The translations under genes and the position numbers were made by a program. From the IMG/VR virus record IMGVR_UViG_3300045988_076381: a DNA stretch of 64,000 nucleotides; one strand, 5' to 3'. Below the pieces are notes generated by a model, which was not told the DNA's origin, searched no databases, and saw nothing but the letters and a program-made list of their open reading frames with translations. Source of the stretch: a virus. Below are positions 6,001-64,000 of the stretch, piece by piece (the stretch's first letter is position 1; each line of letters opens with the position of its first letter).

Positions 6001-8148
6001 TTCATCACTAAGGCGTAGATTTTCTTCATTAATAATAGCATCCCACTGATTTATTAACTGTAATGATAGGTCTATTACAGCATCATTTTGGGAAATATCT
6101 CCAGATTCTACAGGAGAGTAATTTATATTCTCTCCTTCTATTGTTCTATTAGTAGCAGAAAGATTTTTTGGAGCTACACCTTGTTGTCTTAATCTCTCTA
6201 ATTCTGAGATTAATTTAGATTTACCTCCATTTCGTAATATGTAAAAGATATTATCAGTAGCTTGTTCCGGAACTCTTTTATTTATATCAGATAAATTATT
6301 AGCAGCTTTAAATATAGCCCCACCAATAGCACCCCCAAATCCAGCCATTAGATATCTTTCCAATGGATTAGAGGATAAGAAATCAAAAGAAGCATCTTTT
6401 TGTGTACCAGAAATTCCTGTGAATACATCTGTAATAGCTTTAGACATATCCATAATAGCTTCTTCTGACATTTCCTCAATTCCCTCAGCTACAGCATTAC
6501 TAGCTATTCCAGAACCTGAGATAATATTATTTATAGGTTCCTTTACTTTTTTAAATGTATTTATAGCTTTCTTTAATACAGAATTAAATGTAGCTTTATC
6601 TTTTGTATTATTTGCAGTATAATGTAATAATTCTCTATTTTCTTCAATAAATTTCTTTCCAGCATTTCTTATAGCGGCCCTTTCACTGTCAAACCCCAAA
6701 CCTTCTAAAGCTTTCTGTCCTATCTCTGTAGATTGTATCATCCAAGTGGTAGCACCCATAGCTAATCCAGCAGTTAGAGCTGCGGTTCTTCTATCATATC
6801 CAGCATCTAGAGCATCATTATATACATCCAAGGTAGAGGTTCCTGACATATAAAAATTAGCCATGAATCTACCTAAGAAATTATTTCTTATATTCGCTTT
6901 ATTTATAGCATTTATAACTGCTGGATCTGAGTTAATGATAGTATTATATAATCCTCTATTTTGAATTATACTACCGTCAGAGATAGCTTTTACTACCTCA
7001 TCTCCATATTTAGCTTTTATAGCTTTTAAAGCAGCTCTTTCAGAGTTTCCTATACCAAGCCAATTAGGGATTTGGGCTAATAATCTCTGTTGGAATAATT
7101 GGGAGCCTATATCAGATACTAACCTTCCAAAATTTTCAAAGGTTAATAATTTCTCTTGAGACTTATCCGATACACTAGTATTAAATTGGTTTGCTTTAGC
7201 TTCTATAGTATTTAATATCCCAAAATTAGGATTTGGATTATTATTAATAGCTCCATCCAGCATTTTATATAAAGTAATCCCTAACTTAGTACCTTCTCTA
7301 AGAACTAAAGCTCCAGCGTATGCTTGACCTACATAGGGGATAAATAGAGGAGCTATACTAGCTACAGTTTGTGCTATAGTAGACCCAATACTTGATTCTT
7401 CTCCATCATTATCAAAAAAATCAAATTTATTCCATGTAGAATTTTCTCTAGTAATTACATCAAATGCACTTAATACCTGTTTACCATGAACTTCTCGATT
7501 CCCAAGAGTTTCATAATAAGGCATTCCAGTCTCATCTAGTTTTATCTCTCCTTTTTTATGTTGTATTAATCTCCCAGTTTCTGGATCAGTCTCTTGAACA
7601 TCTTTATCATACTGAGCCAGAACTATAGGAGTTTTAGTTACTGTTCCCCAAAATCCTAGATCCTCTGGAGTTAAATCCATCCATCTGTTATTCTCGGTAT
7701 CGAAGATTTTATTTTGTTGAGCCATTTCTCTAGTAGACATACTAGTCATTTCTGTACCTAGTATAGTATTTAATCCAGTACTCTGAATAAAGGGATTTTT
7801 AGTCTTTATTATATCTAAGGAAATGTCTTGTACAGGAGAAAGTTGGGATTTAAAAGGAGACATTATATCATACTGCACCTTAGGAAGATCTTCTTCTGTG
7901 AATTGTCCTATAGATAATGTATTATATGAAGATAATGCTTTATTATAAAATGTATTAAATGCGTTATCATCAAACTTTCCATCTGGCGAAGTAAATGCTT
8001 GAATGATCTTTTCATTTTGTTTATATTCATCCTTTGACTTCAATTCTATATCATTAGGAGTAATTCCATTTTGTAAGAAGTCTATATAAGTTTTATCTTG
8101 GTTTGAGTAATATAACCCAAACCAATCTTTTTTCTCTAAATTATCCAT
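1..8148 (-). CDS. giant virion/ejection-type protein (>2716 aa, 3' end lies beyond the window start) with an embedded SF1 helicase-like P-loop NTPase module
   Basis: The ATG at 8148..8146 translates as MDNLEKKDWFGLYYSN. No stop occurs down to base 1. The ORF track lists only terminated ORFs, which explains why it shows nothing on the minus strand here. I checked these motifs as in frame: Walker A INGAPGVGKTTGV (3325..3348), Walker B RLIFIDEVTQL (2902..2922), motif-VI-like TAITRSKEGTIII (2245..2271). Glycine-zipper hydrophobic segments occur near the N-terminal third. Confidence 0.8.
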   Translation of the reverse strand, partial: MDNLEKKDWFGLYYSNQDKTYIDFLQNGITPNDIELKSKDEYKQNEKIIQAFTSPDGKFDDNAFNTFYNKALSSYNTLSIGQFTEEDLPKVQYDIMSPFKSQLSPVQDISLDIIKTKNPFIQSTGLNTILGTEMTSMSTREMAQQNKIFDTENNRWMDLTPEDLGFWGTVTKTPIVLAQYDKDVQETDPETGRLIQHKKGEIKLDETGMPYYETLGNREVHGKQVLSAFDVITRENSTWNKFDFFDNDGEESSIGSTIAQTVASIAPLFIPYVGQAYAGALVLREGTKLGITLYKMLDGAINNNPNPNFGILNTIEAKANQFNTSVSDKSQEKLLTFENFGRLVSDIGSQLFQQRLLAQIPNWLGIGNSERAALKAIKAKYGDEVVKAISDGSIIQNRGLYNTIINSDPAVINAINKANIRNNFLGRFMANFYMSGTSTLDVYNDALDAGYDRRTAALTAGLAMGATTWMIQSTEIGQKALEGLGFDSERAAIRNAGKKFIEENRELLHYTANNTKDKATFNSVLKKAINTFKKVKEPINNIISGSGIASNAVAEGIEEMSEEAIMDMSKAITDVFTGISGTQKDASFDFLSSNPLERYLMAGFGGAIGGAIFKAANNLSDINKRVPEQATDNIFYILRNGGKSKLISELERLRQQGVAPKNLSATNRTIEGENINYSPVESGDISQNDAVIDLSLQLINQWDAIINEENLRLSDEELISLSALRDRRVEDLIKFDGRLDIIRDYNQLGKEIGNLLLEKKDIENRLNAPNKEIPNKTELESRLNIINEELQQKRTEKDILLRGGKSEEYLKRALFNISEISNKIYSSDIYTYTENILGKPYGSLSESEREEIKSRYKAYREDNNEKLDKAYKIFTSLSQKYGDNIINIVSKLPLLNKIKGYLSGIDEEALLNLDEDAKRNFDLARKLGLELGVPVERGIDYIFEYRNTDLSDINTQNIIKNFFNSINQDGSGIDVGSIFSTYKNSGEFISNIFDTIFNIDQKIDTLSNSINNKLNSDPTLDKNFVIRESIEEFLNKNISNSIVKSYIQNNLNLPNLNSSEEVISNIRKILINLSGLLQFNLIPQLRTRSMMNLIESARNEGIELTKDLYSYIKTYLKSDNKVELDYSSYVSNLLSYVDESLGELVNYDLQNIKSQSPDFQAALKEGFEEIGVNNLEEVIQISEELKNVKDWFEIASLLKNSNLNDVEKRIIIESINDSNKSKTKSSLSEINILSEASIDPSQLVENPLNTLLSEIYLNVDESAGNINIFELLSNESDLLKSTNTLSDYVLQGKVKLEQLDTAINVINALQSVVSSMQSSTIENGGYGFNSTLNYVREKLGVSEKLPEIESNSAFEVIQELERIKNKLGFYKKLSEQNKGNKLKEHKLTAIKTRQALIKNYQDKLFRNKAPELFEGVDDILSNYNLDSLNNSDLTDEEYISLEKLILEVEDRIYDNATKLSKNNTVSKEHLISKLFQNYDYSKLMKEAYNNPASLNSEITEMSPSDLFIYYHTILTTKASTFNNALRDIVNESLGSDKQLIIPIFSQEYAARIALACIIDINFMNNSTELTKEFENSITNPALRDKYKNYISRLQNTVFINGAPGVGKTTGVDSLVFKLANKLLGEQGAVISGPKMQQTVNLLNSITGKSYSETEGLNTINDTIKNKKLTAITADMLLNSILVSPEIIEKAKKQFNDPQSKTIPENERVIDILETQDKELVVRINPKYLTPSNFKSGIFQDQRLIFIDEVTQLSKFELELLSSWAQQNDKILITSGDLLQSGYAGSDGAYLGIDVDTNLIYTPTLATSLRITNIHKKDNLDSLRVLTDRVRNVDNYYTTGEFNLEEGIKIALSNYENVPSLKYYEDDVKLSGDKIVGSISTFDLDKLVHDSEEPIGFIYDDVNSDTYKLIDTYIKKNPGKIRKFKLEEVQGSEAKYFIVDKKFNFGSHGEFVEKATRDLYTAITRSKEGTIIINNGLTTKLTKGSERISYTQSSILNNEAAKSFSELRLKALNASLENKTIEPQKKESSTTSVSTPQPNVELGKVLDAAFSDSPEANREIQQLERIESKTEKHSPDSFICYSYRTRIKPKAEINGDITTYSIKDSAIMLRLDSNSEHRAFFNGEIDGLNPTQFERVDEKILEVKSILYNYTKSRRNKLFKDYNIEQDLSNLYNDISGNTGTLDLSNGKFVLKATKYFNKSIGKEDSVIRIIYEIPILNSSTEENTVELYIVELPNINNESFRIKDSDTPEQRASKAWFVEYQKFYGQIMNSFILDESGKSNKYFQLRDDFELERITNSIIYKGSDKKKFAHVPFESKESEFRGIYFSKPYIVTNTRYGKSNRNELLIQRNERLNTLYNDYYETLEEYNKADTTQKSRLEPILKSKSERLNAEINKNNIKGKAVVFATHSKYIFDEDDNIISEDQYGDYYIDQMNGKYDNDLDRRDKIRMIILNPEGQTFQSFISKYREFINSYKKNSGVAKYNGKFYKSYFGDFIGFDTLLSIYNYYNYLKTTGKPESKHIKIAEKLLNSLSALAAKEGNAENPFDLPGSKVKFGLPHILRIMERLHMETTPEEIKKMENYSSTINGNDVLKFINKIIEFKINQRLHPELLVSSPIINEENGGIFQDWNKEDGITDLDIIDFMEFAMLGRRNYKQPDGSINSVEAPNYNPLFKNGIFPFPVYELTDKKTDYTGGEYFYEARNPEGQYYIDRDIQTPQ

Positions 8149-8149
8149 A

Positions 8150-10024
8150 TTATTTAAATGCCTCTGGATTTAATCCTCCAGTTCTTTGTGTAATTTGATT
8201 AGTATTTCTTATTACATTCTCGTAACCTAAATTAGATTTAGCTGTTTGTGGAGCTGTTTTTCCTGTGAATAAGATTGACATTAATTCATCTTGTACAGGT
8301 AAGAATATAGAGGATTTATAAATATCATCGTCAGAAAGAAGCCAGTATTCTGGAGGTACATAACCATTAGCTCTTAATAATTTATTTTCTAAATTTGATC
8401 TAACTCTAGAATACATATCCCTAGCTTTATCCTCCAAATCATTACTTAATCTCTTAGTAACTTTATTTAATTGTGTCTCCTCTGCTACTTCTTCTGGGAT
8501 TAGAGATGGGATAACCATAAATTGATGCATATAAGATAATTGACTTTGTGCAGGTTCTCCATTTCTAAGTATCAAATGATCAACATTATGCGCTCTATAA
8601 ATATTTAATTTCTGATCTTCTGTAACAGTTGGACCTATAGCAGAAATTTCATTATCAGCATCCTCTAAACGTTTTAACGCATTTAAATCTACTACTTTAG
8701 ATCCTGTTTTGGGATCGGTTACATAGGGCAACCATGTCATTGCTATTCTATCCCCTTCATATAGCACTTTACTTAAATCATTAGGATTTAAAGTAATTCC
8801 AGTTCCAACAGAAGCTCCAGAAATATCTACTAAAGAACCTAATCCCCCATCTGTGATTATATCAGATAAGTAATTCTCATTTAATACTTCTCCTTTAGAT
8901 CCTATTAGGGGTCGTATACTAGCCTTAGCATCAAAAGAATATTTATTTCCTACATTTATAGTATATTTTTGATTTTTGGGATCAGATACATAACTCATTA
9001 AAGGATTGATATCAGTCATTCCTCCCGAACCTCCTGATCCACTTCCAGATTTACCTTCTATAGCTTCATCTTTTAAAGATTGAGAGTAGGAATGATCTGT
9101 TCCGAATATAAGAATATTCTTAATACTCTCTATTGCATTTTCTCTAGGATCTCCAGTATTATTAATAGCAGCTCTTGCTATTAAAGTGTTTCTAGATTGT
9201 TGATCTAAGTTATTCCATATATAATTTAACGCAAGATTAGCATTCTTCCTTTGTGTAGCAACTTCCTCAGTTAATTTAAAAGTTCCATCAGGAGCGGTAT
9301 TTAACTTCTCACTTACAATAGCTTGTAATCCTTTTTCTAATTGATTAGCTCTAGCTTTATCAAAGTAATAATCAGAAGATTGTTTTTCTACTCCTATAGA
9401 TTTAACAATATCCTCTATTCTTTTACTTATATCATTTATATTTAAGCTTCCAGCAACAGTTTGTGATAAACTATTATCAAATATATAAGCTCTACTATTA
9501 TTTCTTAAAGTTAAAAGATCATTATTAGTTAGTATCCTATATCCTTCTCTATCTTCTGAATACTGATCTGGAGTAATCATTACAAGTTCTCCATTAGTAT
9601 TTTGTGCAAATAAATTCCCGGAATAATCAACTGCTGCTTCTGAAAGTGTTCCTTTAGATAAAGCATGTTCTTTTGCTTGATCAAATATCTGTTTATTATT
9701 CTGAATCTCGTTTAATCTAGATACTAATCCTGTATATTGTCTAACGCTGATAGGTTGTCCTAAAAGATCTGTATCAGCAAAGATATTACCAACTTGTTCC
9801 GCGAAATAATTAACTTCATTAGTTAATCCTTTACCAACCATTTGACCTATAATATCTTTCAACTGTTTCTGAGAATTATCAATCTTAGTATCACCAGATT
9901 TAGCAGAAGAATTAGCTACGGCTGATGTCCCTTCTTCTCTTCCAATAGGTTGAAAGAAAGGAGAATACCCAACCCACGGGGCCAGTTGTCCTCCTTCTTG
10001 AAATTTTTTAATATTTAACTTCAT
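8150..10024 (-). CDS. virion internal/ejection-type protein, function unknown (624 aa)
   Basis: Long ORF packed tightly between its neighbours. The N-terminus MKLNIKKFQEGG carries the recurrent aromatic-x-x-GG motif. It contains an internal GSGSGGSGG linker. Confidence 0.6.
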   Translation of the reverse strand: MKLNIKKFQEGGQLAPWVGYSPFFQPIGREEGTSAVANSSAKSGDTKIDNSQKQLKDIIGQMVGKGLTNEVNYFAEQVGNIFADTDLLGQPISVRQYTGLVSRLNEIQNNKQIFDQAKEHALSKGTLSEAAVDYSGNLFAQNTNGELVMITPDQYSEDREGYRILTNNDLLTLRNNSRAYIFDNSLSQTVAGSLNINDISKRIEDIVKSIGVEKQSSDYYFDKARANQLEKGLQAIVSEKLNTAPDGTFKLTEEVATQRKNANLALNYIWNNLDQQSRNTLIARAAINNTGDPRENAIESIKNILIFGTDHSYSQSLKDEAIEGKSGSGSGGSGGMTDINPLMSYVSDPKNQKYTINVGNKYSFDAKASIRPLIGSKGEVLNENYLSDIITDGGLGSLVDISGASVGTGITLNPNDLSKVLYEGDRIAMTWLPYVTDPKTGSKVVDLNALKRLEDADNEISAIGPTVTEDQKLNIYRAHNVDHLILRNGEPAQSQLSYMHQFMVIPSLIPEEVAEETQLNKVTKRLSNDLEDKARDMYSRVRSNLENKLLRANGYVPPEYWLLSDDDIYKSSIFLPVQDELMSILFTGKTAPQTAKSNLGYENVIRNTNQITQRTGGLNPEAFK

Positions 10025-10025
10025 A

Positions 10026-13000
10026 TTATTTCTTAATTATTCCTCCGAATCTAAATACTTTAGGATATTGTCCAGATAATCCTAATTTTTGTAAATCTAT
10101 ACTCCTCTTTAATCCTTTAAGTTGTAACTCTTTTTGAGCGTTAATAATATTTTTATATTCTGGATCTAAGAATAATTTAGTAGGATCTTTCTTATATTCT
10201 TCTTTTTGATATAACGCATCTAATCTTCTCTGTAAATCTGATGCAGTAATAGAATCCTCTGTAGATAATCTAGCATTTTTATATTGAGAATCTAAAAGTT
10301 GTTCATTTACTTTTCTAGCATTATTTGTATTTATATACTGCTTAGTTTGTTCTGTTACATCATGTAAGAATGTATCCCAGATATTAGCATTTTGTCCTAT
10401 CTTCTGAGCTTTTAAATTCGCTAAAGTATTTAAATACTCTGTAGTAGCTAAACGATTTCTATTTGCAGCTTCCTCTCTTCTCATTAAATTATTAGCATTA
10501 ACTTGAAATGCTTTTTCTCTAGACTGTTGTATAGCTTGTTCGTTTGCTAAATCTCCTTGTAATCTTGCTTCTGCTGCATTTTTAGCTACTTCTAAATTAT
10601 ATGCTAATTGTCTATCGGCATCTGAGGTTAGAGGTGTTCTAGTTAATCCTTCTAAATTTGCTGCTTGTTTATAATAAGCTTGTCTAACTCCTTCATTTCC
10701 TTGAATGGAATAATTTAAATCCGTAGGGAGATTTATTAAAGAAGGTCTTAGATCTTTTTTTAATGTTTTATATATCTTATTATTAGCTGCTGTTTTTTGT
10801 ATAGCAGAAGCTAAGGAAGATATAGTAGTTAGAGGAATACTTCCTAATGACGATTTAGTTGGAAGATAATTTTGAGATTCAATATTAGAACCAGTTGAAG
10901 ATTTAGTGATAGGAGTATTTAAAGAAGATGTATTCATTGGTTTTAAATTAAAATCAAGAGTATTATTATTTAAAACTCCAGCATCAATTCTCCTCATTCT
11001 AGAAGGTGATTTTCCAGTCGCAATAACTTCTTCTAATATGTTAGTAGGTGTAACTCCTCCATCTTGATATTTAATAACTCCTCCATTTTTAAATTCCTTA
11101 ACTTTTTTATTTGCTTCAATCCATTCTTTAGAGCCTAATTCATATTTATCTCTTTCTTTAAGAAGTTTATTTCGAACAGAATAATAATCTAAATTACCTC
11201 CATTTTTATATCTTGGTAGTAGTGCAATCATATTTTGATATTCTATCCATTTATCAGAACCAAATTCATATTGATCTCTTAATCTTGCATATGTATTACG
11301 AATTTTTAAATTAGTTAGTTTCTTTTTATTTATATTATCTATTGGTTTGTTTATTCCGGAAACTATTTTAGATAAATGTTCAGCTTCTTTTCTATATCCT
11401 AATTCATTAAGTCTTTTTGCTTCTTCAATATCCCTTTTCCTTCTTAATTCTGATATCCGTAAAAGTTCTGATATTTTCTTATTATTCTGATTATTAATTT
11501 TTCCACCTGAATTTGTAACTATTTTGGATAAATTTTTATTTTCTTCTTTATACCCTAATTCATTACGTCTCTTGGTTTCCTGACCTTTTAAATATGCTAA
11601 TTGCGTTCTCCTCCTTGCATCTTCTAACTTTTGTTTATTTGCAGCTATTATTGCTTTTCCTTCATCACTTTCTCTAAATTTTTTAGCATCCGCTTTTCTT
11701 ATATCAGATTTAGTTACCCTAGTAGCTTTTCCAGAAGGTTCTACTAAAGGTCTAGTTGTGCCAAAAGGAGTTGACTGCATAGATTCTAATAGGGTACTAT
11801 TTAATGTAGCATCATTAGCTCCTTTCGTAGGATTTACAACTCTATGTATTAATTTCTCCTTCTCTTCAAGTATCTCCGATCTTGGTGCTCTTACATTAGT
11901 AAGTTTTCCTGGGACTTTTTCAGTTAAAGGTCCATGATAAACTACAGTAGGAGCTCCAGAAATTTGTCCGAGATAAATATTATTATCCTCTAATTGTTTC
12001 TGGATATTGCCACGTCTATAATAAGCCTGCTCTGCTACTAATCCTTTCTGGAAGGATGAGAGTTTATTATTCTTAATCTTATCTAAAGTTTCTGGTGTTA
12101 ATTCTCTCCCAGCTACTTTAGTTTCTTTTACTTTTCCAACTCCGCGTGTGAAAGAATTATACCATTTACCTTTAGGTATTTTTATATTACTTAAATCCTC
12201 GTCAGTTAAATCCGTATATTGAGATTTTAATTTAGTCTTAACAGTAGTTAATTTATCCTCTGTCGACATCTTATTAAATCCCTCTACCTCATTATTTTTA
12301 AATGAAATTTCTTTAGTTTTACCGTTAACATTAACTTCTAGAGGTTTAGATAATTCTCCTGCACTAGCTTTTTGAGTATATAACTTCTTCCCAGCAACAT
12401 TTCTACCGATACCTGTTACAGCATTTAATCCATTAGCTAACAATCTCCAGTCATTTATAGTTAATTCTTCTCCTGACATCACTTTACCTAAAGCAGTAAG
12501 AGAAGTTCCTAATCCTAATGCAGTAAATGCTTTACGTAGTATTGGAGCTGCTGTTTTTATTGCTTTAGTTACTTTAGCTCCTTTAGCCACTGTTCCTAAT
12601 CCGGGAATTAATGTTGCTGCATCCATCCCTAGATTTAGTATTAAGTTCCCAGTATCACTCCATGACCAATCATCATCACGTTTATAATCAGCAATAGCAG
12701 TAGAAATTGTAGATCCTAATCCTGTTGCAGCTCCCACAGCATTTCCTACACCAAACGCAGCGGTAGAAGCTAAGCCAGCTACATCTAATGCTAATGCTGT
12801 TAAATCTGCTTTATCTGCTGCACTTAATGATTCTCCAGAGAATACATCTGACATGGAAGCAGATTGTTTATCTTGTAGATCTGAGGAAATTGAATTTCTT
12901 AATATTCCACCTTCTTGATACATTCCTACTCCACTTGGTATATATCCGGTACTTGCATAGTTACTTATTGGAGCATATTTTAATCCTAAAAATGGTTTAA

Positions 13001-34747: not shown

Positions 34748-37700
34748 CTGTCATTTATATTTAAATAAGATCGTTACTCTTATTCGAGCGTTTGCTCCAC
34801 TATGTCGCCATAGTGATTAGACTATATCTTTAACTTAAACACTGTTACCATATTTAAGTTACTCTCCATTTCCGATAGACTTCTATCGTACTCTACTCAT
34901 TTACTTGTTATAGGATTTCTCTATAACTACACTTTCGATAGTCGTTGAACTTTATATACTACTAAATGTGATTTAGTGTATATCTTAGCTGCTGATTGTC
35001 TAAGATAGAGTTTCCAGCAATTAGAAGAGTTGTTTTCTCTAATATCGCTACTAAAGGGGGTCTAAGCTTTAAAATTTTCAGATATCAAACCCCAGTAAAT
35101 CATTTTCTTGAGCCTCCTGATCATTTTTGATCAAGAATCTTCATATTTCCATGAAGAACAGACTATATTATCACTTTTAAAAGTGTCTCCTCTTTCGAAC
35201 TTATTTAAGTTCTATGCCTATTTAATAGGACTTACTAGTCGTTGAACCTTTTTCTTTATTTAAAGAAACTTGGCTGCGGATTGTCTAATATTTAACCTTG
35301 TTACTATACCGAAGTAGTTACCTTCGCCATATAATTATTGCTAATTATATTTAGTAGTTAAATCTCTAAAGATGTTCCCGCAATTTAGGAGATTAGGATC
35401 CAAAATGATTCAGATCCTGCAACTGGTGTGCTAGCGGTTCCTCCTGAGATACCGTCGATCCCGCCTCAAAGGCTATTTTCTTATATTTTCATATAAGTTA
35501 GACTATATCATTAACTTGTTATAAGTTTATTCAATATATTTAAACACAAACCCTTTACAATGTGAAGCAGTTCCTTTAAGAACCTTGCTAACATTAGCAT
35601 ATTGTTTTCTACATTCCCTAACAGTATCAAATGTTTCTAATAGATTTCCTTCAAAATCATATCTTCCTACTTTTCTTTTTTTACATGGATTGAAATTTTT
35701 GGGAATTTCTAATTTATCTACTTTCTCCCAAGACCAAAAGTATCCACCATAACTTTGATTTAGATTTATAGCATTAGATAATCTATTTTGTTTTAAATTA
35801 CAAAATTCCTTAGCTTCTTTAGAATTTTTAAAACTACGTAAAAAATTACCTTCTAAATCATACTGATAGATAGGGTCATTACTTCTTTTTCTTTCTTGAG
35901 ATTTTATTGGATAAACATCAAATTTTCTATCGGAAATATAATATTTAGATATTTTAGTTCCTAATTTTACAGCTTTCTGTATTGAACTAAGATTAACATC
36001 TAAGTATCTAGCTGTATCAGACATAGATTTAAATTCCATGAAAAATACTCCTTTAGAAGTATATAAATAAGTTGATTTCTTTTGTAAAATAGGTTTGTTA
36101 GACAGATCTAGTTTATCAACTTTTATATCAGACCAATAAAATTCTCCACTCATACTTCCATTCAATACTGCACGCCCAATTGCAGCTTCATGAATATGAA
36201 TATGATCAGATGCCTCTTTAATACTATTAAAAGATCGTAAATAGTTTCCGGATAAAGAATACTGGTATATAATTTTATTTAATAATGGAGGAGTATCTCC
36301 GCCTAATGTAATATTATATGTATCAGATCTTCCAATGAAATTTTCATTTACTAAAAATCTTTCAATATTTTCTGCTTCTTCTCTTGTATTACATATAAAT
36401 AATGTAACTCTAGAGAAAGCATCAAATCCGTATTTCTTAACAGCACTCTGAAAAGGAGTTTTTGGATGTAATATACTAGATGGTTTATATATATTTACCC
36501 CATTTCCCAAATATCCATCAAATTTATCAGGATTCTCTGTTTCGTGTATTCCAATATAAATTTTTCTGTTTTTATTATTTATCGTTAGGTATACTATAGT
36601 TTTCATATATTGTGTTTTTACTTATACATTAAGTTATTTCCCATTTCGGAAGTAGAACTTCCTACGTCTATCCAGACTAGTCGTTGAACCCAATTTTGGA
36701 GTTTACATAAGTCTTACATATCCCAAAACCTTGGCTGCTGATTAGCATGTAATATTTATATTATTTAGCTTTCCAGCAATTAGAGAAATTTATTTTTCTG
36801 CATATCACTATGCAGCGGCGCAAGCGGATCTATTTACGCCAATTACATCAGTTTTAATCATATCACAGCCCTTGAACGTCCAAGATTCAATAGCTGGTTT
36901 TCCGTTAGCTAAGTCCGGAGTTAAGTCAAGAATAAATCCAAATGCTTGATCAGGATATTCTATATTTAAAGCTTTATCCGGCATAAAAGTAATCGTATTA
37001 CCCTGATATTCATAGCTAACAAAAGTATTACCTACTTTAACACCATCAACCGTTTCACCTACTTTCTTCTTCATACCAGAAGATTTACTATACATCAAAG
37101 TAGCAGTAGGAGTCCACCTTCCAATTTCATCCATTAAGTTATCACCAACCTGATTCCAAAGTAAAGAGTTACAGATTAATACGTAATCATTACCAGTTAA
37201 ATTCTTTGCCTTAGAGGTTAAGAAACTTAATGCTTCTTTGAAGTGTGAAGTAAGTAATTGATCGAAAGAGATTAAGTATGCATATCTTTCAATTTGAGGA
37301 ATTATCATTTGTGTTAGCTTTATGTTACCATAAAGATCAGACTATATCTTAATCTTATATATTTAATTATTAAGATCCCCTCCATTTCGAGAAATTTTTC
37401 TCTACTCCATATTGGATAGTCGTTGAACGTTTCTTATAAAAGACTTCGCTGCTGATTGTCTTTATATTTAAAGATGTTCCAGCAATTAGAAGGGTGTTTC
37501 AGTATTTATCACTAAATAAAGCGGCAAATTTCTTACCGTCGCCTATATACACTATTTATACTTTATATCACTATAAAGATTAGACTATATCATCAACTTA
37601 TCTTGTAACAATTATTTTTATTTAATTATTTAAGTTGTTCCCTGCTTCCATATATAAATATGTACGTCCGAAGACTAGTCGTTGAACTTTCATTAAATAT

Positions 37701-39941
37701 GATATAAATATATACAATATTTAATGCTTAGCTGCTGATTGCCTTTAAGTAGCAGATTAAAGATATTCCAGCAATTCAAGGAATTTAATTTATCATACTG
37801 TTTCCAGTATGCGACCCATGTTTAACATAGACGTTTGTTAAAATTTCCCAGGTCTCTGCGTTTGCGAATCAATTATAGTCGGTTTTCCGTTCTTATCCAC
37901 ATTACTACGTGCCCAAAGATCATGTTTAGCTTTAACTTCCAAGAAATTCTCAATCAAGGTCTTTTCCATTGAAGTCATAGTAAACAATTTCTCACTTCCC
38001 TTAGTTTCTGTATCACTAATTTTCAAGAATACATCTTCATTAGCTAAATAGGCTTGAGATGCATCAATATCATTTCTATGTAAGGTTAAGTAGTTACGAT
38101 GAACCTCCATATTAGACTGATATTTAGTCGTTCCAAAGTCGTGATAATCAAACGGATGAGCATTTGATAAGAAGTGAGTAGTCATACCAGGTTGACACGC
38201 AGAAGTATCAAGATACGACATATAATCAGTATCGATTAATCGAACAGTGTATTCATAATATTTATTACTTCTCCAAATTGGACGAGCAGTAACATAACAC
38301 TGTTGATGTGATTTATCTATCACGAAAATATCATGTTTATCGTAGTATTTTTCTTTAAACAACATCCGAATTTCAGTTCCTCCAACACCATCGCCTTCTG
38401 GAACAGCAACAAACGGAATACGTTTAATGAACCTATTCTATTTAAAGAACTTAGACTATATCATTTACTTATTAGTATGATATTTAAAGATATAATCTTT
38501 ATAATATCTATCCCCCATCTGGATATTCTTTAATTTATTTGATGGGATATTGTATTTTTCTCTTACTTCTTTTATAGTATTTAAAGTCTCTATATAATTC
38601 CCAAATTTATCATACACATCAATTATCATTCCATTAGAATAACATTTTTGTGGAACTTTAGATACTTCTGTAGTAGATATGTAATAATCCTTATACCATC
38701 CCTCGTTATAAGATAATATATTCTGAATTTTAGCCCATGAATGAAGATTTATAACCTTCATTACTTCTTTCCCTTTAAATCTTCCTATATAATTTCCTTC
38801 TTTATCATATACATAATAAATAAGATTCTTACAACTTATCCTAGCCTTCGGAATAAATTCATCTACTAACTTCTTAGATATATAATATTGATTCTGTACT
38901 AGAGACTGATTTTTAATAGCTTTACTTATATCTAATATTCCTATATATTCAGCACATTCCTTTTCTGATTGAAACTCATTTAAGAGCTTCCCTTTTTTAG
39001 AATATAAATATACAGAAATAGGTGGATTAGATTTCTTACAATATTTAATAACATCTATCTCTGGTTCTAATGCCCAATAAGAATTAAGAAATTCACATTT
39101 CTTATCTATAGCATATTGAAATTTTTTAGGAGATTGTCCGTAAAAATCAAATACTTCTAAAGAATATTCCCATTTCTTTTGTAACTCTCCAGATGTATTA
39201 AATTGATAAATTGTTTTATATAAATCTGTATTTAAATAATTATAAGTATGATCCGCTTTTAAATACTCAGTATTTATTAACTCAGATTCTTTATTATACG
39301 CCTCTTCTAGAGTATCATAAATATATAAAGTAGTTCTCTCAAATGCTTTTGTTCCATACTTTTTAACAGCATATTGAAATGGAGTTTTTGGGTACATATA
39401 AGTACTTGGTTGATCTATATAAACTCCACACCCTAAATATCCATCAAAAGTATTAGGATCATTTGTCTGATGCACTCCAATATAAATTTTATTTAACTCT
39501 CCAACTTTAGATTTTAAATTTTTAGTAAGATATACAATATATTTCATAAGTAATTCAGTTTTTTAATCTTATTTAAATAATAAGATTTACAGGTTTCCCC
39601 TAGTCGTTGAACACTGTCTTCATCAAGACCATGCTGCTGATTATCTCTAGTAGCAGTAGAGAGTTCCCAGCAATTTAAAGAATTTATTGTGAACCTCATT
39701 GATTCACATCCACGTCCCATTCGATAGCAAAAGCATCAATACTCTTACGTCCGGGCTTAGGAATATCTTGATAAACCATATTTTCAATTCTCTCAGTTAA
39801 AGCTGATACAGTATGTCCGGGACATAAAGATGCAGCTAAACCTACTCTATGAGTAATTCGTCCCAAGAATTGGGAGAAGTCATGAAAAGTTCTTGAGCCA
39901 TTCATATTGGCTCGATTTGAAATGTATTCTGCTACAAACAT
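34683..39941 (-). CDS. major capsid protein gene, interrupted: 7 exons, 6 group I introns; spliced product about 485 aa
   Basis: Three listed ORFs (39696..39941, 37838..38365, 36808..37308) read as consecutive pieces of one HK97-type capsid protein. The gene follows a scaffold-like gene and precedes a terminator. The exon lengths 240+582+15+482+55+19+65 sum to 1458 nt, which is in frame throughout. The intervening DNA carries group I core elements and stops in all frames. Confidence 0.8.
34748..35087 (-). mobile_element. group I intron 6 of MCP (about 340 nt, ORF-less)
   Basis: The minus strand carries P TCTAATTGCTGGAAAC, Q AATCAGCAGC, R GTTCAACGACTAT (34938-34950) and S AAGATATAGTCTAA (34817-34830). 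The P1 helix GGGGTT(T)/(T)AGACCCC places a U.G pair at the 5' splice site. Confidence 0.75.
35088..35106 (-). CDS. MCP exon 6, 19-nt micro-exon (KMIYWG + 1 nt)
   Basis: The exon is AAAATGATTTACTGGGGTT. Its first 9 nt are complementary to AATCATTTT beside the guide sequence of intron 5 (P10). Its last 6-7 nt form P1 of intron 6. Confidence 0.65.
35107..35411 (-). mobile_element. group I intron 5 of MCP (305 nt, ORF-less)
   Basis: It carries P CTAAATTGCGGGAAC, Q AATCCGCAGC, R GTTCAACGACTAG (35236-35247) and S AATATAGTCTG (35158-35169). The P1 helix AGGATCT/GGATCCT ends in a U.G pair. Confidence 0.75.
35412..35466 (-). CDS. MCP exon 5 (55 nt; (V)GGIDGISGGTASTPVAGS)
   Basis: This is a GC-rich island between two introns. 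The 3' splice site after CCTTTG is supported by P10 pairing of AGGCGG with CCGCTT beside the intron 4 guide. This is the only frame that joins exon 4 (ending GT) to exon 6. Confidence 0.65.
35467..36835 (-). mobile_element. group I intron 4 of MCP (1369 nt) carrying a GIY-YIG homing endonuclease gene
   Basis: It carries P CTAATTGCTGGAAAG, Q AATCAGCAGC and R GTTCAACGACTAG (36678-36689). The HEG lies between R and S, and S is GATATAGTCTAA (35498-35510). The P1 helix GGCGT/GCGCC ends in a U.G pair. Confidence 0.8.
35527..36606 (-). CDS. GIY-YIG homing endonuclease (359 aa), intron-encoded
   Basis: The N-terminus reads IVYLTINNKNRKIYIGIHE...GYLGNG...FLVNENF...YNITLGG, which fits GIY-YIG. Four nuclease-associated repeat modules follow (IYQYSL.GNYLRSF.S..EA etc.). 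Confidence 0.8.
   Translation of the reverse strand: MKTIVYLTINNKNRKIYIGIHETENPDKFDGYLGNGVNIYKPSSILHPKTPFQSAVKKYGFDAFSRVTLFICNTREEAENIERFLVNENFIGRSDTYNITLGGDTPPLLNKIIYQYSLSGNYLRSFNSIKEASDHIHIHEAAIGRAVLNGSMSGEFYWSDIKVDKLDLSNKPILQKKSTYLYTSKGVFFMEFKSMSDTARYLDVNLSSIQKAVKLGTKISKYYISDRKFDVYPIKSQERKRSNDPIYQYDLEGNFLRSFKNSKEAKEFCNLKQNRLSNAINLNQSYGGYFWSWEKVDKLEIPKNFNPCKKRKVGRYDFEGNLLETFDTVRECRKQYANVSKVLKGTASHCKGFVFKYIE
36836..37317 (-). CDS. MCP exon 4 (482 nt; LTQMIIPQIERY...KTDVIG + GT)
   Basis: This is the body of listed ORF 36808..37308, extended 3 codons upstream to the 3' splice site after the P9 hairpin CTTTATGGTAACATAAAG. The listed ORF tail NRSACAAA is intron read-through. Confidence 0.7.
37318..37534 (-). 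mobile_element. group I intron 3 of MCP (217 nt, ORF-less)
   Basis: It carries P CTAATTGCTGGAAC, Q AATCAGCAGC, R GTTCAACGACTAT (37417-37428) and S AAGATATAGTCTG (37338-37350). The P1 helix CGGT/GCCG is short (4 bp) and has a U.G pair. Confidence 0.7.
37535..37549 (-). CDS. MCP exon 3, micro-exon (best model 15 nt, YIGDG; an 8-nt alternative exists)
   Basis: A segment of about 100 nt between S of intron 2 and P of intron 3 contains GC-rich GGCGACGGT. The 15-nt model keeps the frame from exon 2 (ends CCT) to exon 4 (starts CTA). Its 5' boundary is uncertain. Confidence 0.4.
37550..37849 (-). mobile_element. group I intron 2 of MCP (about 300 nt, ORF-less)
   Basis: It carries P GAATTGCTGGAAT, Q AATCAGCAGC, R GTTCAACGACTAG (37676-37687) and S GATATAGTCTAA (37581-37592). 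The P1 helix GACCT/GGGTC ends in a U.G pair. The P2 hairpin is CATACTG-GAAA-CAGTATG. Confidence 0.75.
37850..38431 (-). CDS. MCP exon 2 (582 nt; FIKRIPFVAVPEGDGVGGTEIRMLFKEKYY...SQTQRP)
   Basis: This is listed ORF 37838..38365 extended 22 codons upstream in frame to the 3' splice site AATAGG|TTCATT. The P10 pairing is TCATT/AATGA. Confidence 0.75.
38432..39701 (-). mobile_element. group I intron 1 of MCP (1270 nt) carrying a GIY-YIG homing endonuclease gene
   Basis: The P1 helix GTGAAT/GTTCAC has a U.G pair. It carries P AAATTGCTGGGAAC, Q AATCAGCAGC and R GTTCAACGACTAG (39601-39612). The HEG follows, then S GATATAGTCTAA (38451-38463). Confidence 0.8.
38465..39547 (-). CDS. GIY-YIG homing endonuclease (360 aa), intron-encoded; paralog of 35527..36606
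   Basis: It reads MKYIVYLTKN...KIYIGVHQTNDPNTFDGYLGCGVY...PKTPFQYAVKKYG. This is colinear with the other HEG (PKTPFQSAVKKYG). Repeat modules follow downstream. Confidence 0.8.
   Translation of the reverse strand: MKYIVYLTKNLKSKVGELNKIYIGVHQTNDPNTFDGYLGCGVYIDQPSTYMYPKTPFQYAVKKYGTKAFERTTLYIYDTLEEAYNKESELINTEYLKADHTYNYLNTDLYKTIYQFNTSGELQKKWEYSLEVFDFYGQSPKKFQYAIDKKCEFLNSYWALEPEIDVIKYCKKSNPPISVYLYSKKGKLLNEFQSEKECAEYIGILDISKAIKNQSLVQNQYYISKKLVDEFIPKARISCKNLIYYVYDKEGNYIGRFKGKEVMKVINLHSWAKIQNILSYNEGWYKDYYISTTEVSKVPQKCYSNGMIIDVYDKFGNYIETLNTIKEVREKYNIPSNKLKNIQMGDRYYKDYIFKYHTNK
39702..39941 (-). CDS. MCP exon 1 (240 nt; MFVAEYISNRANMNG...AFAIEWDVDVN)
   Basis: This is listed ORF 39696..39941 minus its last codon. 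The 5' splice site follows GTGAAT. Confidence 0.75.
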
Positions 39942-61796: not shown

Positions 61797-62061
61797 TTTT
61801 TTGTCCTACGAAGTATCTAGTTAGATTTAAACCTCGAAGGTGTAGTTCTTTCTTTATTTTTTCTAAAAACTTCTCTTTACTATCACATTGGATATATATA
61901 CATAAAGGAGTTAGGTAATCTTCTGTTATATACATTTTAAGTATATAACCATCCTCTGTTTTAATTATATCCATTGATTTATTATATATCGCCCCATATA
62001 ATTCTAATATGTATTCTTTAATCATACATATTAAATATTCTTTTTCAGTCGTATTAATCAT
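61735..62061 (-). CDS. hypothetical protein (108 aa)
   Basis: ORF that overlaps the terminase stop by 8 nt and the listed portal start. Confidence 0.4.
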   Translation of the reverse strand: MINTTEKEYLICMIKEYILELYGAIYNKSMDIIKTEDGYILKMYITEDYLTPLCIYIQCDSKEKFLEKIKKELHLRGLNLTRYFVGQKIDLDERRVQTRIKRLSNSEG

Positions 62062-62243
62062 ATACTGAATCTGTTCTAGATATTAATACTTTTAAATCCT
62101 CAGGAATTCCATCATCTGTAGGTATTTTTCCAAAATGTTTTACTCCATTAGAATCATAATAATATCCTATTTTACTTATTTTAATTTTTTTCTTCTTCTC
62201 ACCAATTCCTCCTAGTAATCTTAGTTCTTGATCGCCCATTTCG
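62054..62243 (-). CDS. terL: terL last exon (190 nt)
   Basis: This is listed ORF 62054..62239 plus 4 nt upstream. It joins AT|C to give Ile. An alternative 3' splice site lies 3 nt upstream. Confidence 0.6.
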
Positions 62244-64000
62244 CACCATATTTGTTATCTATAAGGCTTTTTATCCTTATATTCTTATAATTTCTTATAA
62301 GCTCAGCATATATTTTCATCTTATATTTAAATAAGATGTTCCGCACTCGTGGAAGGATTATTACTCTCATTAACGTTCACCTTCTATGCGTTACAATGGC
62401 TAACGATGTTTTAGCTTATCTCGGTATTAGCATGGTATTTAAACTTTAACTTTCACCGATTTTGCGGAATTATTTTATTACCTTAAATTTCTTTAAGGAG
62501 GGACATGCAAGGTCTATCCCCATTGCAGCGATAATATCAAACTTCCTCTTATTCTCATAAGAATAATCCTTTAACTCATTTAACATCTCTATACAATCAA
62601 TTCTATCCCAGAATTCATTAACATAATCCTGAATAAGTTCAAGATAATACTCAATAACTCTTTTTGAGGGATAAATACCGTACATACTAGAATTTAAAGA
62701 TTTCTTCTTAGATACATCTGTACTATTCGGAGATTGTAATTTTTTCATTAATAAATATTGTTTTCCTTTATCCTGAAAATAACTTACAATAGCTGTTCTG
62801 GAACTTTCTAATACTGCTTTTGCTCCATACCATTCTAATAATAGAATTGTCTGATTATAAGCTGTTCTAATATTCTCAGGCCTATCTTTATATATAGCTA
62901 CATATTTATTTCCATCAAGTCCATAATTCCTCTTCTTTATAACTAAACAGAAATCAGATGTATCCTTCTGCCCAGTAGACTGATCAATACCTTGGTCAAT
63001 AGAGTCAATTCCAGCAACATAAAGATTAGGTATTAAATCACCATTCTCATCTCTTATAGGCTCTTCAAATATTTTAACTTTACCATTAGGAGAAGAGATG
63101 AATTTAATATTATCTCTACCTCCATCTGTGGCTAAAGCAAGTATACCAATTTTTGGTTTTATTCCGTAGCCATGAACTTCTATATCTGTTAATCTTTGTG
63201 CGATTAAATTCTGATTGAACATATTATCTCCTTTCCTAGATAAAGCTTCTTGGAAAGTCCAACAATACTCTGCACAATGTACCATATAAGCAAAGGGATC
63301 ATTTGAGTATCTTTGACGTTCAATCATTAAAAATTCTTCTGCTTTCTTACGTATTGTAACTCCTCGATTATCTATTATCCCAGGTTGCATTACTATGGCA
63401 GTAGATGGGATAAAGTATGCTGTATAGACTGTACGATTATCTGAGGAGTGATTATGTTTATATGGTAAGATTCCGAAGGAAATTGGATCAAGAAACATCC
63501 GTTCTAGTCCTTCTAAAGATGGACCACTATCTCCCACTTTGTTATCTCTAGAGCTTTTTATCTCTAGATTCTTACACTTCTTAATTTATGTAAGGTCAGC
63601 ATATATTTTCATCTGTTCTAGATGTCGAACACTCGTGGTAGGATTATATTTATTCACCTACTATGCGTTACAGTATCAATTAACCTTTCGCAATTTAATT
63701 GATTACCTCGGGATTGGCATCACAGCTTTCCCCGATTTTGCTCGATTTTCTCAATGAAGATTCCTCTTCAAGCCGGCAAAATTTTATATTTTCTTTCTAA
63801 ATAAATACTGGAATATTTACCGGTACCATAACCAATCTTAAATCCAACTCTTTGTCCAATTACCTTAATAAGAGCATCTCCTTGAATCCATTTCTTAATC
63901 AACTCGGGGTCAGAACCACATTCTTCGTATATAAGTAATTCACATCGATCACCTCTGACTTTAGAAGGTTTATCCGCTACAATACCTGTTATCATAGATT
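62054..64000 (-). CDS. terL: terminase large subunit gene (5' end outside the window), interrupted by at least two group I introns
   Basis: The pieces read ..DKPSKVRGDRCELLIYEECGS..GYGTG | GDSGPSLEGLERMF...VAGIDSIDQG...FDIIAAMG | IEMGDQELRLLGG... The breaks coincide with two homologous non-coding elements. Confidence 0.75.
62244..62515 (-). mobile_element. group I intron, family 2, copy B (272 nt, ORF-less)
   Basis: The P1 helix GGGAT/GTCCC has a U.G pair. The P4 halves are TCGGT/ACCGA. R-like TGTAACGCATAG (62384-62395) pairs with S-like ATATATGCTGA (62303-62313). The intron ends in GTG. Confidence 0.7.
62516..63534 (-). CDS. terL: terL middle exon (1019 nt; nuclease domain)
   Basis: This is listed ORF 62470..63537 trimmed. 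Its GTG 'start' is intron sequence, and its tail IDLACPSLKKFKVIK is intron read-through. Confidence 0.7.
63535..63818 (-). mobile_element. group I intron, family 2, copy A (284 nt, ORF-less)
   Basis: The P1 helix CCGGT/GCCGG has a U.G pair right after codon GGT of GYGTG. The P4 halves are TCGGG/CCCGA. R-like TGTAACGCATAG lies at 63661-63672 and S-like ATATATGCTGA at 63596-63606. The intron ends GTG|GGAGAT. Confidence 0.75.
63819..64000 (-). CDS. terL: terL upstream exon (partial; continues beyond 64000)
   Basis: The listed ORF 63768..63995 stays open upstream of its Met to the window edge. Its tail KYSSIYLERKYKILPA is intron read-through. Confidence 0.65.

Follow-up and report, generated by a model that had tools for sequence, protein, structure and literature searches.

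The 64,000-nt stretch of viral DNA analysed here (IMG/VR record IMGVR_UViG_3300045988_076381; hereafter the window) carries close to its end a minus-strand gene in three exons, separated by two related non-coding elements that the initial annotation had read as group I introns in the terminase large-subunit gene, terL. We confirmed the pair and its strand (77% column identity between the aligned copies) and refer to the elements as intron A (63818..63535, 284 nt) and intron B (62515..62247, 269 nt). For intron A, the previously proposed extent and junction (GYGTG|GDSGP) are exact, and its excision is gapless. Exon 1 is cut by the window end and represented by its 3' part (63819..64000, ending in GGT ACC GGT, GYGTG); exon 2 (62516..63534, 1019 nt) runs from GDSGP to FDIIAAMG plus a final AT, and exon 3 (62054..62246) from G TGC GAA ATG to the TAA, comprising 63 codons plus the stop. 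Neither intron contains a plausible protein-coding ORF, and the ORFs that overlap them are chance ORFs of at most 72 aa. Within each intron, the exon frame runs into a stop after 16–17 codons, ahead of the core (in intron A, a TGA at the start of the P2 hairpin); phage group I introns typically have such early stops (PMC2504315).

Removing both introns in silico yielded a single 815-aa ORF, with the three exons in frame and no stops. This spliced TerL matches phrog_6681 (6e-39; PHROGs) and is colinear, without gaps, with TerL from the two closest relatives, in which the gene has no introns, so that the comparison with intact homologs on which the initial annotation had staked its reading came out in its favour. 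Junction A is gapless against the TerL of MT835470 and cr50_1, and each of the two insertion points splits a short motif that intact TerL homologs carry uninterrupted (GTG|GD and AAMGM|CE). PHROGs alone recognised the spliced product: a Pfam search with the spliced TerL fragment gave no match, and the full spliced TerL, compared by sequence with the PDB, gave no terminase match. Judged by the phrog_6681 match and the colinearity with crAss-like TerL, the interrupted gene is terL of a crAss-like gut phage. By our reading of the protein, site A would lie ~30 residues after a putative Walker-B-like LLIYEE, and site B directly after a putative KFDIIAA motif. The same arrangement is kept in three contigs from other assemblies that are 97–99% identical. 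In one of them (L015, 99% identical), exon 1 is a single ORF whose start lies 1236 nt upstream from the splice site; further intron copies in terL past position 64,000, which the initial annotation had suggested looking for, are absent from this near-identical contig.

Anatomy of the two introns

Intron A, of the alpha sub-lineage, matches R1, our covariance model of the terL intron lineage, over its full length (206.4 bits); it keeps all 54 family positions that are conserved at 90% or more and forms 50 of 51 pairs. All coordinates below refer to the minus strand. In the minimum free energy (MFE) fold, the internal guide sequence, the 3' strand of P1, is UUUGCCGG (63773..63780), in which G63777 is the partner of U63819, the final base of exon 1, and P2 is a hairpin (63755..63770; UGAAGA GGAA UCUUCA). 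The L1 loop spans 63781..63815. P3 (UCGAG 63745-63741 / UUCGA 63629-63625) closes a span (63625..63745) that holds P4 (63735-63730/63713-63708), P5, P6/P6a, the 5' strand of P7 and P7.1. The P7 5' strand, A(C)GCAUA with the C bulged (63662..63668), pairs with UAUGCU at 63603-63598, which together with the AAAAUA of J8/7 occupies 63598..63609; G63666 belongs, with C63599, to the G-C pair of P7 that is the putative guanosine-binding site. Stacked directly on P7 is the P7.1 hairpin (63638..63661; GUAGG/CCUAC) with its conserved loop UGAAUAAAUAUAAU. P8 (63610..63624; CAUCU/AGAUG) precedes J8/7, and the 3' part (63547..63594) is made up of P9 (63594-63588/63577-63571) and P9.1 (63568-63562/63553-63547), the latter with the loop AUAAAAAG. 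The terminal (omega) G at 63535 is the sole in-frame G that yields GTG|GDSGP. P10, as read from the sequence, is weak in intron A, with four pairs of which three are G.U.

Intron B, of the beta sub-lineage, matches R1 at full length with 170.1 bits and likewise keeps the full set of 54 conserved family positions. In the MFE fold, its internal guide sequence is UGUCCCU (62499..62505; P1 3' strand), in which G62504 is the partner of U62516, the final base of exon 2, and P2 is the hairpin CCUUAAA GAAA UUUAAGG (62481..62498). The P3-closed span (62339..62469; UUCCG 62469-62465 / CGGAA 62343-62339) contains P4 (UCGGUG 62459-62454 / UACCGA 62426-62421), L5, P6, the P7 5' strand AACGCAUA (62392-62385) and P7.1 (GAAGG 62384-62380 / CCUUC 62356-62352), and the P7 3' strand UAUGCU follows at 62305..62310.

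While the location initially given for intron B stands, its 3' end probably does not: an end at 62244 (272 nt; AAMG|IEMGDQ) leaves a one-residue gap relative to the nearest TerL homologs. Based on homolog colinearity, a 6-bp P10 and the tail length of the family, the intron most likely ends 3 nt upstream, at G62247, and measures 269 rather than 272 nt. Exon 3 then reads AT|G TGC GAA (AAMG M CEMGDQ) and aligns without gaps, as GMCEMGD against GMCELGD/GLCELGD of the homologs, with the conserved Cys included. A candidate P10 strand, UUGCAU (62505..62510), read directly from the sequence, complements the first six exon 3 bases GUGCGA (62246-62241) through four Watson-Crick and two G.U pairs, and we found no comparable P10 pairing in intron B for an exon 3 starting at 62243. 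The site at 62244 was rejected in favour of 62247, where the homolog alignment is gapless. A C/T difference at 62243 in L015 is synonymous under both 3' sites and therefore does not discriminate between them.

Covariation of the group I fold

The conserved blocks that the initial annotation listed as common to the two elements are all present; one of them, GATGAAAATATATGCTGA, is found at only two places in the window, one in each element. Also borne out were the three helices for which compensatory changes between the copies had been proposed, namely P6a (TCAATTAA/TTAATTGA versus GCTAA/TTAGC), P7.1 (TAGG/CCTA versus AAGG/CCTT) and P9.1 (CTAGAG/CTCTAG versus ATAAGG/CCTTAT), each of which covaries across both 43 and 117 homologs. 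In addition, P3 differs between introns A and B at four of its five pairs, with every pair still forming. As described before, both elements end in G, and a U.G pair in P1 is predicted at either 5' splice site, where both 5' exons end in T and the predicted partner is G.

We drew the fold from P3 to P9.1, including the P3/P7 pseudoknot, by hand and evaluated it on an alignment of 43 sequences made with MAFFT and not fitted to structure (A2). In this alignment, 96.2% of cells are paired, compared to 31–41% with shifted partners, and in 41 of the 51 pairs both partners change. Covariation scores 0.68 versus 0.18 for shuffles, with none of 500 shuffles reaching the observed value. The same picture emerged from 117 distinct sequences. 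The core helices P3-P4-P5-P6-P7-P8 follow the canonical order, and the P3/P7 pseudoknot is supported: all five P3 pairs show double changes, while P7 (GCAUA/UAUGC in the window, as initially read) is 100% paired, with double changes in two of its six pairs and the remaining pairs invariant among the 43 sequences. The P7 pairs 83-153 and 87-150 switch between A-U and G-C in A2, base 84 is bulged (C or A), and G85-C152 is invariant in the 43 sequences, with both positions at least 95% conserved across the 117. P7.1 is 100% paired as well, with double changes in five of five pairs (43 sequences).

A lineage missed by Rfam

In the covariance-model scan suggested by the initial annotation, R1 found introns A and B in the window with 206 and 170 bits, ranking ninth and mid-table, respectively, among 121 family matches. 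No copies beyond these two were detected in the window, and the capsid introns scored weakly (27.5 and 18 bits). The Rfam group I model RF00028 gave no match to the window copies, neither at its gathering score nor at E ≤ 10, and none in eight relatives at E ≤ 10. Since the introns of T4 td and nrdB likewise go undetected by this model at the gathering score, its silence is not diagnostic against group I. RF00028 does match the capsid region seven times (four of these above the gathering score), which together with the two copies in terL makes the earlier count of at least eight group I introns in the window plausible. The proposal that the terL copies form a second, distinct family holds in so far as their lineage is separate from that of the capsid-gene introns, because RF00028 finds the latter only and R1 scores them weakly; it does not hold in the sense of a different kind of ribozyme. 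Judged by the J6/7-P7 element UAACGxxUA and the P8-P9-P9.1 layout, both of which it shares with T4 td, the lineage sits inside the phage IA-type architecture.

Its marks are P7 of the form GC(A/G)UA/UA(U/C)GC, a single P7.1 hairpin, the loops GAUAAAAAG and GAUAACAA, and CCA(C/A)GAGUG, in which the variable base follows the identity of the third P7 pair. The correlation of positions 116 and 147 with the pair 87-150 may reflect a base triple. An exact-pattern scan with variable gaps found the lineage at 120 or more loci in IMG/VR. P7.1 and P7.2 serve for the classification of group I introns (PMC3984707). In the present lineage, P7.1 is present and covaries (in some relatives its loop is extended by a nested hairpin) and is followed, in place of P7.2, by the conserved, unpaired 9-mer; no P7.2 hairpin was found between P7 and P3'. 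Michel and Westhof are said to have defined IA2, the subgroup of T4 td and Twort, in 1990, by the presence of both P7.1 and P7.2 between P7 and P3'. We regard the subgroup of the present lineage as IA-type, not classical IA2.

Homing-endonuclease genes and their probable relics

Neither window copy holds an intact homing-endonuclease gene of the kind expected of a mobile intron. Relatives carry LAGLIDADG genes or remnants of them in the same loops. At site A, the intron of MT835539 (L001) contains an intact LAGLIDADG gene, and the 3' part of L1 in intron A, from intron position 27 on, aligns to this intron. Because it matches the 3' coding end of that gene, this segment is likely a LAGLIDADG gene relic. 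In intron B, close relatives have extra DNA at a point in L5 (62446): 56–57 nt in L015 and L043, and ~780 nt in L014, including a LAGLIDADG gene with a frameshift. These sequences show stages of endonuclease decay at the same sites, from intact (MT835539, site A) through frameshifted and a 56-nt remnant to clean deletion; the stages are drawn from the window and the three 97–99% identical contigs, with the more distant MT835539 contributing site A only.

Comparison with known introns

The R1 model matches the terL intron of Lactobacillus phage JCL1032 over its full length with 166.2 bits, and this intron is annotated as a spliced CDS. The group I introns of JCL1032 are described as proven and self-splicing in the part of PMC6669764 that cites Riipinen & Alatossava 2004. 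By the model match, introns A and B share a lineage with this published terL intron of the Lactobacillus delbrueckii phage. Common to them are P7 (GCAUA/UAUGC), the P7.1 loop UGAACAAAUAUAAU, an L6 loop with GCGAAAGG, the L9.1 loop GAUAAAAAG, the tail GAUAACA and terL as host gene. The JCL1032 intron differs in its terL site, near the N-terminal ATPase region (putative Walker A region), and in residing in a siphovirus of a Gram-positive bacterium.

A further R1 match (154 bits) lies in the terS-portal interval, i.e., the terL region, of the Bacillus cereus 03BB108 phage-plasmid pBFI_4. Going by strain and gene position, it is probably the term-IVS2 of Tourasse & Kolsto 2008 (PMC2504315), who described group I introns, classed as IA1 or IA2, in prophage terL and tape-measure genes. 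The features reported there, namely in-frame insertion, early stops, endonuclease-gene remnants and retargeting through P1 changes, are all seen in the terL introns A and B too.

Motif-level similarities of the window introns to T4 td, the IA2 archetype, are the J6/7-P7 element (UAACGACUA in td, UAACGCAUA in the window), nearly identical P4 strands (ACGGGGAA / AAUCCCGUGCUAA), the order P8, J8/7, P7', P9, P9.1 and a G(G/A)UAA tail. In contrast, td has GACUA/UAGUC as P7 and a longer, different sequence from P7.1 to P3', where the window introns have the conserved 9-nt CCA(C/A)GAGUG. In td, the P7.2 hairpin is placed between P7.1 and P3'. Its annotated GIY-YIG gene lies between P6 and P7, a position which we take to be the P6a loop, whereas the gene of the window lineage is of the LAGLIDADG type and sits in L1 or L5. 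Run with filters off, R1 matched td marginally (E = 0.01 on P4-P6 and E = 0.04 on the 3' half).

For Delta- and Zeta-group crAss-like phages, Yutin et al. 2021 (PMC7886860) reported up to 14 introns per genome. The window phage is of the same kind, and as in that group several introns with LAGLIDADG genes interrupt core genes, the capsid gene among them. Delta-group TerL, according to the same survey, typically bears inteins, not introns. Since introns were located there via endonuclease protein domains, ORF-less copies like A and B would escape it.

Discussion

Introns A and B are very probably ORF-less, self-splicing, phage IA-type group I introns in a crAss-like terL. Splicing would proceed along the group I pathway: terL would be transcribed through both introns, each of which would fold into the P3-P9 core, and the internal guide sequence would form P1 with the end of the upstream exon, placing the U.G wobble at the cleavage site. 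A free guanosine, presumably held at the conserved P7 G-C pair, would attack the 5' splice site, after which the terminal G would take the same pocket, P10 would align the downstream exon and the exons would be ligated, so that one mRNA encoding the 815-aa TerL would result. The ancestors were probably mobile copies with LAGLIDADG genes in L1 (intron A) and L5 (intron B) that have since been deleted, and the introns would persist only because they are still spliced out of an essential gene.

Alternatively, A and B could be true group I introns that need help in splicing, from a LAGLIDADG maturase encoded elsewhere in the genome or from a host RNA chaperone, and would in that case be less than fully autonomous ribozymes. 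Such dependence fits with the loss of the LAGLIDADG ORFs from both introns, with the homing endonucleases that the window still encodes in its capsid-gene introns, and with an A+U-rich RNA (31–36% GC) whose P1/P2 fold z-scores are only about −2; with both endonuclease genes gone, any intron-encoded maturase on which splicing depended would need to act in trans. We nevertheless consider such dependence unlikely, given that the core is complete and strongly conserved and that those phage group I introns that have been examined in vitro (T4, Twort, SPO1) splice themselves, to our knowledge. The reported self-splicing of the related JCL1032 intron points the same way. Endonuclease-gene loss is also the stage that precedes intron loss in the homing cycle, and the copies might accordingly be splicing-dead relics in a terL pseudogene of a defective phage. 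This appears very improbable: neither copy has lost any of the positions with at least 90% conservation, all helices form, the R1 scores are among the better ones of the family, the three exons are in frame without stops, and the arrangement recurs in the highly similar contigs from other assemblies.

That no intron is involved at all, with TerL made as three assembling polypeptides or with the inserts representing miniature transposons, translational bypass sites or inteins, has the faintest chance of being correct. An ATG five codons into exon 3 (62239) and the separate ORFs listed for each piece could be taken to suggest it, but all these alternatives leave the covarying group I fold unexplained, and the breaks interrupt motifs that intact homologs keep contiguous. 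The in-frame stops exclude inteins, and inserts of 269–284 nt are far above known bypass gaps, such as the 50 nt of T4 gene 60.

Taking A and B as self-splicing group I introns, their presence leaves the understanding of group I introns and of crAss-like phages unchanged; the lineage is widespread and the feature ordinary. The consequences concern annotation. Rfam has a gap, in that its single group I model misses an abundant phage lineage in addition to T4 td and nrdB, and surveys relying on endonuclease domains miss the ORF-less copies. Tentatively, the lineage may even constitute an uncatalogued structural IA subgroup, very abundant in phage metagenomes and systematically overlooked by Rfam-based annotation. 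In that case, phage structural genes would contain far more ORF-less introns than annotations suggest, and mis-annotation would affect many terL, tape-measure and polymerase genes listed as 'split' or 'truncated'. With its introns unrecognised, terL of the window phage is called as three fragments, and deposited genomes are affected likewise: in cr7_1 and cr131_1, the annotated terL ends exactly at the intron start.

Two group I introns interrupt the terminase large subunit gene

At its right-hand end, the window carries the gene for the large terminase subunit (terL) on the minus strand. Here a coding stretch at 64000..63819, ending GGT TAT GGT ACC GGT (GYGTG), a second at 63534..62516 (1019 nt) and a last one running to a stop codon at 62054 are separated by two non-coding stretches, intron A (63818..63535, 284 nt) and intron B (starting at 62515). 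The product spliced in silico matches PHROG 6681 (terminase large subunit; 6e-39), and its best relatives are TerL proteins of crAss-like phages, so the window derives from a distant, A+T-rich member of the Crassvirales. The spliced product aligns colinearly with its closest homolog, the TerL of MT835470 (39.5% identity), over residues 1-458 in one unbroken piece. Complete spliced terL forms one ORF of 815 codons. Exon 1, followed in a 99%-identical IMG/VR contig reaching past the window end (L015), is one ORF of 412 codons; the initial annotation had proposed looking for further copies beyond 64000, and the covariance model found no third intron copy in terL of this contig.

Introns A and B share 77% column identity in the alignment, and every conserved block previously listed for the pair is common to both. 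Each intron contains one copy of the 18-mer GATGAAAATATATGCTGA, which is found nowhere else in the 64 kb, and of the 54 positions with ≥90% conservation across the family, neither intron has lost any. The exon frame meets a stop codon 16–17 codons into each intron, ahead of the core; such early in-frame stops are typical of phage group I introns (PMC2504315).

We wrote the group I fold by hand onto an alignment of 43 complete cores made with MAFFT alone. It comprises P3, P4, P5, P6/P6a, P7, P7.1, P8, P9 and P9.1, with P3 crossing P7. In this fold 96.2% of cells are paired, compared to 31–41% when the 3' partners were shifted by 1–3 columns; 41 of 51 pairs show changes on both sides, and the covariation score of 0.68 (0.18 for column shuffles) was reached by none of 500 shuffles. 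All five P3 pairs covary. P7 is 100% paired, two of its pairs alternating between A-U and G-C in about half of the sequences. Pair G85-C152 in P7 is invariant in the 43 sequences and at least 95% conserved across 117, with the neighboring base 84 bulged, as is usual for the guanosine pocket. From this alignment we built a covariance model (R1), which retrieved 121 copies from 100 loci. On the larger set, 94.5% of cells are paired and double changes occur in 50 of 54 pairs; three pairs (two at the P6 base and the seventh of P9) are absent from the model, so fitting did not favor these three. Minimum-free-energy folds of the 5' parts predict a P1 whose U.G pair falls precisely on the 5' splice site of each intron, as originally noted, and after it a P2 hairpin.

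In the larger-set alignment, positions 116 (63635) and 147 (63604) of intron A co-vary with P7 pair 87-150 (63664/63601). The base that varies in CCA(C/A)GAGUG and a J8/7 base follow this third P7 pair: alongside A-U either C or A occurs, alongside G-C nearly always A. This may reflect a base triple.

Splice junctions and a revised boundary for intron B

The junction first proposed for intron A holds: IGYGTG|GDSGPSLEGL aligns without a gap to FVWGTGGDQGPALDGL in MT835470 and MFGTGGDEGPAV in cr50_1. For intron B, the 5' end at 62515 likewise stands, whereas we dropped the proposed 3' end at 62244 (272 nt). That site leaves a one-residue gap (AAMG-IEMGDQEL versus AAWGMCELGDEEL), has no comparable P10 pairing, and places the terminal G 8 nt after GAUAACAA, against 4–6 nt in family members. 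With the 3' splice site moved 3 nt upstream, just after G62247, the junction reads AT|G TGC GAA (AAMG M C EMGDQEL), is gapless, and regains a Cys that the two closest homologs share (GMCELGD; GLCELGD); the tail spacing becomes 5 nt. Directly 5' of the intron B guide sequence, UUGCAU (62510-62505) is complementary to the revised exon 3 start GUGCGA, which would give a putative P10 helix. Judged by homolog match, P10 and tail spacing, intron B most likely spans 62515..62247 (269 nt).

Relationship to known group I introns

The Rfam group I model RF00028 gave no match in terL, even at E≤10, nor in eight relatives. In T4 (1956-9113) it found neither the td nor the nrdB intron at gathering score; we therefore attribute the terL miss to the model, not the RNA, and textbook phage group I introns can escape Rfam-based scans. 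The capsid-gene region (34798-39739, minus strand) contains seven RF00028 matches, four introns at gathering score and three matches below it (36610-36845, 47 bits; 39535-39739, 36 bits; 35480-35574, 26 bits). Two capsid-gene introns lie just 16 nt apart (37544/37561), and ORFs 35527-36606 and 38465-39547 match homing-endonuclease PHROG 314. R1 links the terL-intron lineage to accepted group I introns, in the capsid-gene region as well as in T4, JCL1032 and B. cereus 03BB108. Its alignment to the strongest of the Rfam-positive capsid introns (37303-37499; 18 bits, E 4e-5) is full-length, and in another capsid intron it matched the P8-P9.1 half (27.5 bits).

On T4 td, R1 gave marginal matches. 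Set side by side, J6/7-P7 reads UAACGACUA in td and UAACGCAUA in the terL introns, the P4 strands are almost identical, and P8, J8/7, P9, P9.1 and the tail follow a matching layout. The classical IA2 pattern has P7.1 plus P7.2, whereas the terL-intron lineage has one hairpin (P7.1) followed by conserved unpaired CCA(C/A)GAGUG. R1 scored 166 bits on the terL intron of Lactobacillus phage JCL1032, which is annotated as spliced, and 154 bits between terS and the portal gene on plasmid pBFI_4 of B. cereus 03BB108. The second of these matches is most probably term-IVS2, the terminase intron reported by Tourasse & Kolsto 2008 (PMC2504315). In JCL1032, the tape-measure-gene intron (12100-12389) combines the R1 architecture (96.9 bits) with a T4-like P7, GACUA/UAGUC; both P7 versions thus occur within one architecture, and they are interchangeable within one scaffold.

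Splicing and alternative explanations

We infer splicing itself, and consider it very likely that both introns undergo ordinary group I self-splicing, which would restore full-length TerL. Dependence on a protein helper seems unlikely, as the core is complete and the related JCL1032 terL intron is reported as self-splicing in a passage of PMC6669764. Dead relics in a pseudogene would be hard to reconcile with intact cores, open exons and an arrangement conserved across contigs, and we regard this as highly improbable; least credible of all is that the inserts are not introns, given their covarying fold and the in-frame stops within them. Earlier work has described phage terminase genes carrying group I introns (PMC2504315, PMC3984707; JCL1032) as well as crAss-like phages with dense intron loads (PMC7886860). 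Useful by-products of our analysis are the 3-nt correction of intron B, a covariance model that works for a lineage overlooked by Rfam, and an orderly series of endonuclease decay.

Relatives in other phages and homing-endonuclease history

Among GenBank phages, blastn gave intron-sized matches (~72% identity) in very different phages: crAss-like cr6_1, cr7_1 and cr131_1, Staphylococcus Sextaecvirus phages, an Arcanobacterium phage, a Leptolyngbya cyanophage, and Clostridioides and Bacillus phages. Their host genes are terL, tape measure, DNA polymerase and an ATPase, and an endonuclease ORF often precedes the match. An exact-pattern scan of IMG/VR for the 3' core yielded at least 120 loci.

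In cr7_1 and cr131_1 (~2998-3850), the terL CDS as annotated stops between a few and ~20 nt from the R1 match start (3019 versus 2998 and 3002 versus 2998, respectively). Since ~640 nt ahead of the portal gene carry no annotation, the terL 3' exon was probably missed in both RefSeq records. In phiCD211, a full-length R1 match (2328-2584; 178 bits) ends 20 nt before an annotated Intron_gpI feature (2604-2869) just upstream of the tape-measure CDS, an annotation that the current RF00028 does not reproduce at gathering score; 2328-2869 looks like a tandem of introns from two lineages.

In MT835539, a 1103-nt intron (GTG|GE) interrupts the very codon at which intron A sits; its L1 contains a double-motif LAGLIDADG gene that is intact and whose 3' end aligns with the 41-nt L1 loop of the window's intron A. 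In a contig 97% identical to the window (L014; 10811-11860, minus strand), the site B intron is 1043 nt long and its L5 holds a LAGLIDADG gene that is frameshifted, ~780 nt extra. Two further contigs, L015 (10052-10338) and L043 (2925-3212), keep a 56–57-nt remnant at the same L5 point, where intron B of the window has no extra DNA. These differences among 97–99% identical contigs are a homing-endonuclease decay series at one site. Because LAGLIDADG genes or remnants occur at both sites in relatives, we view the window introns as endonuclease-free survivors of two sub-lineages, alpha (gene in L1, P7.1 loop UGAAUAAAUAUAAU) and beta (gene in L5, P7.1 loop UGAACGUUAAUGAGAGUAAUAAU), each of which was retargeted via its own P1. 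The terL of MT835539.1 (3442-5906) also has in-frame stops inside conserved blocks, such as GETGP*MEGL, which suggests stop-codon reassignment of the kind described for crAss-like phages (PMC7886860).
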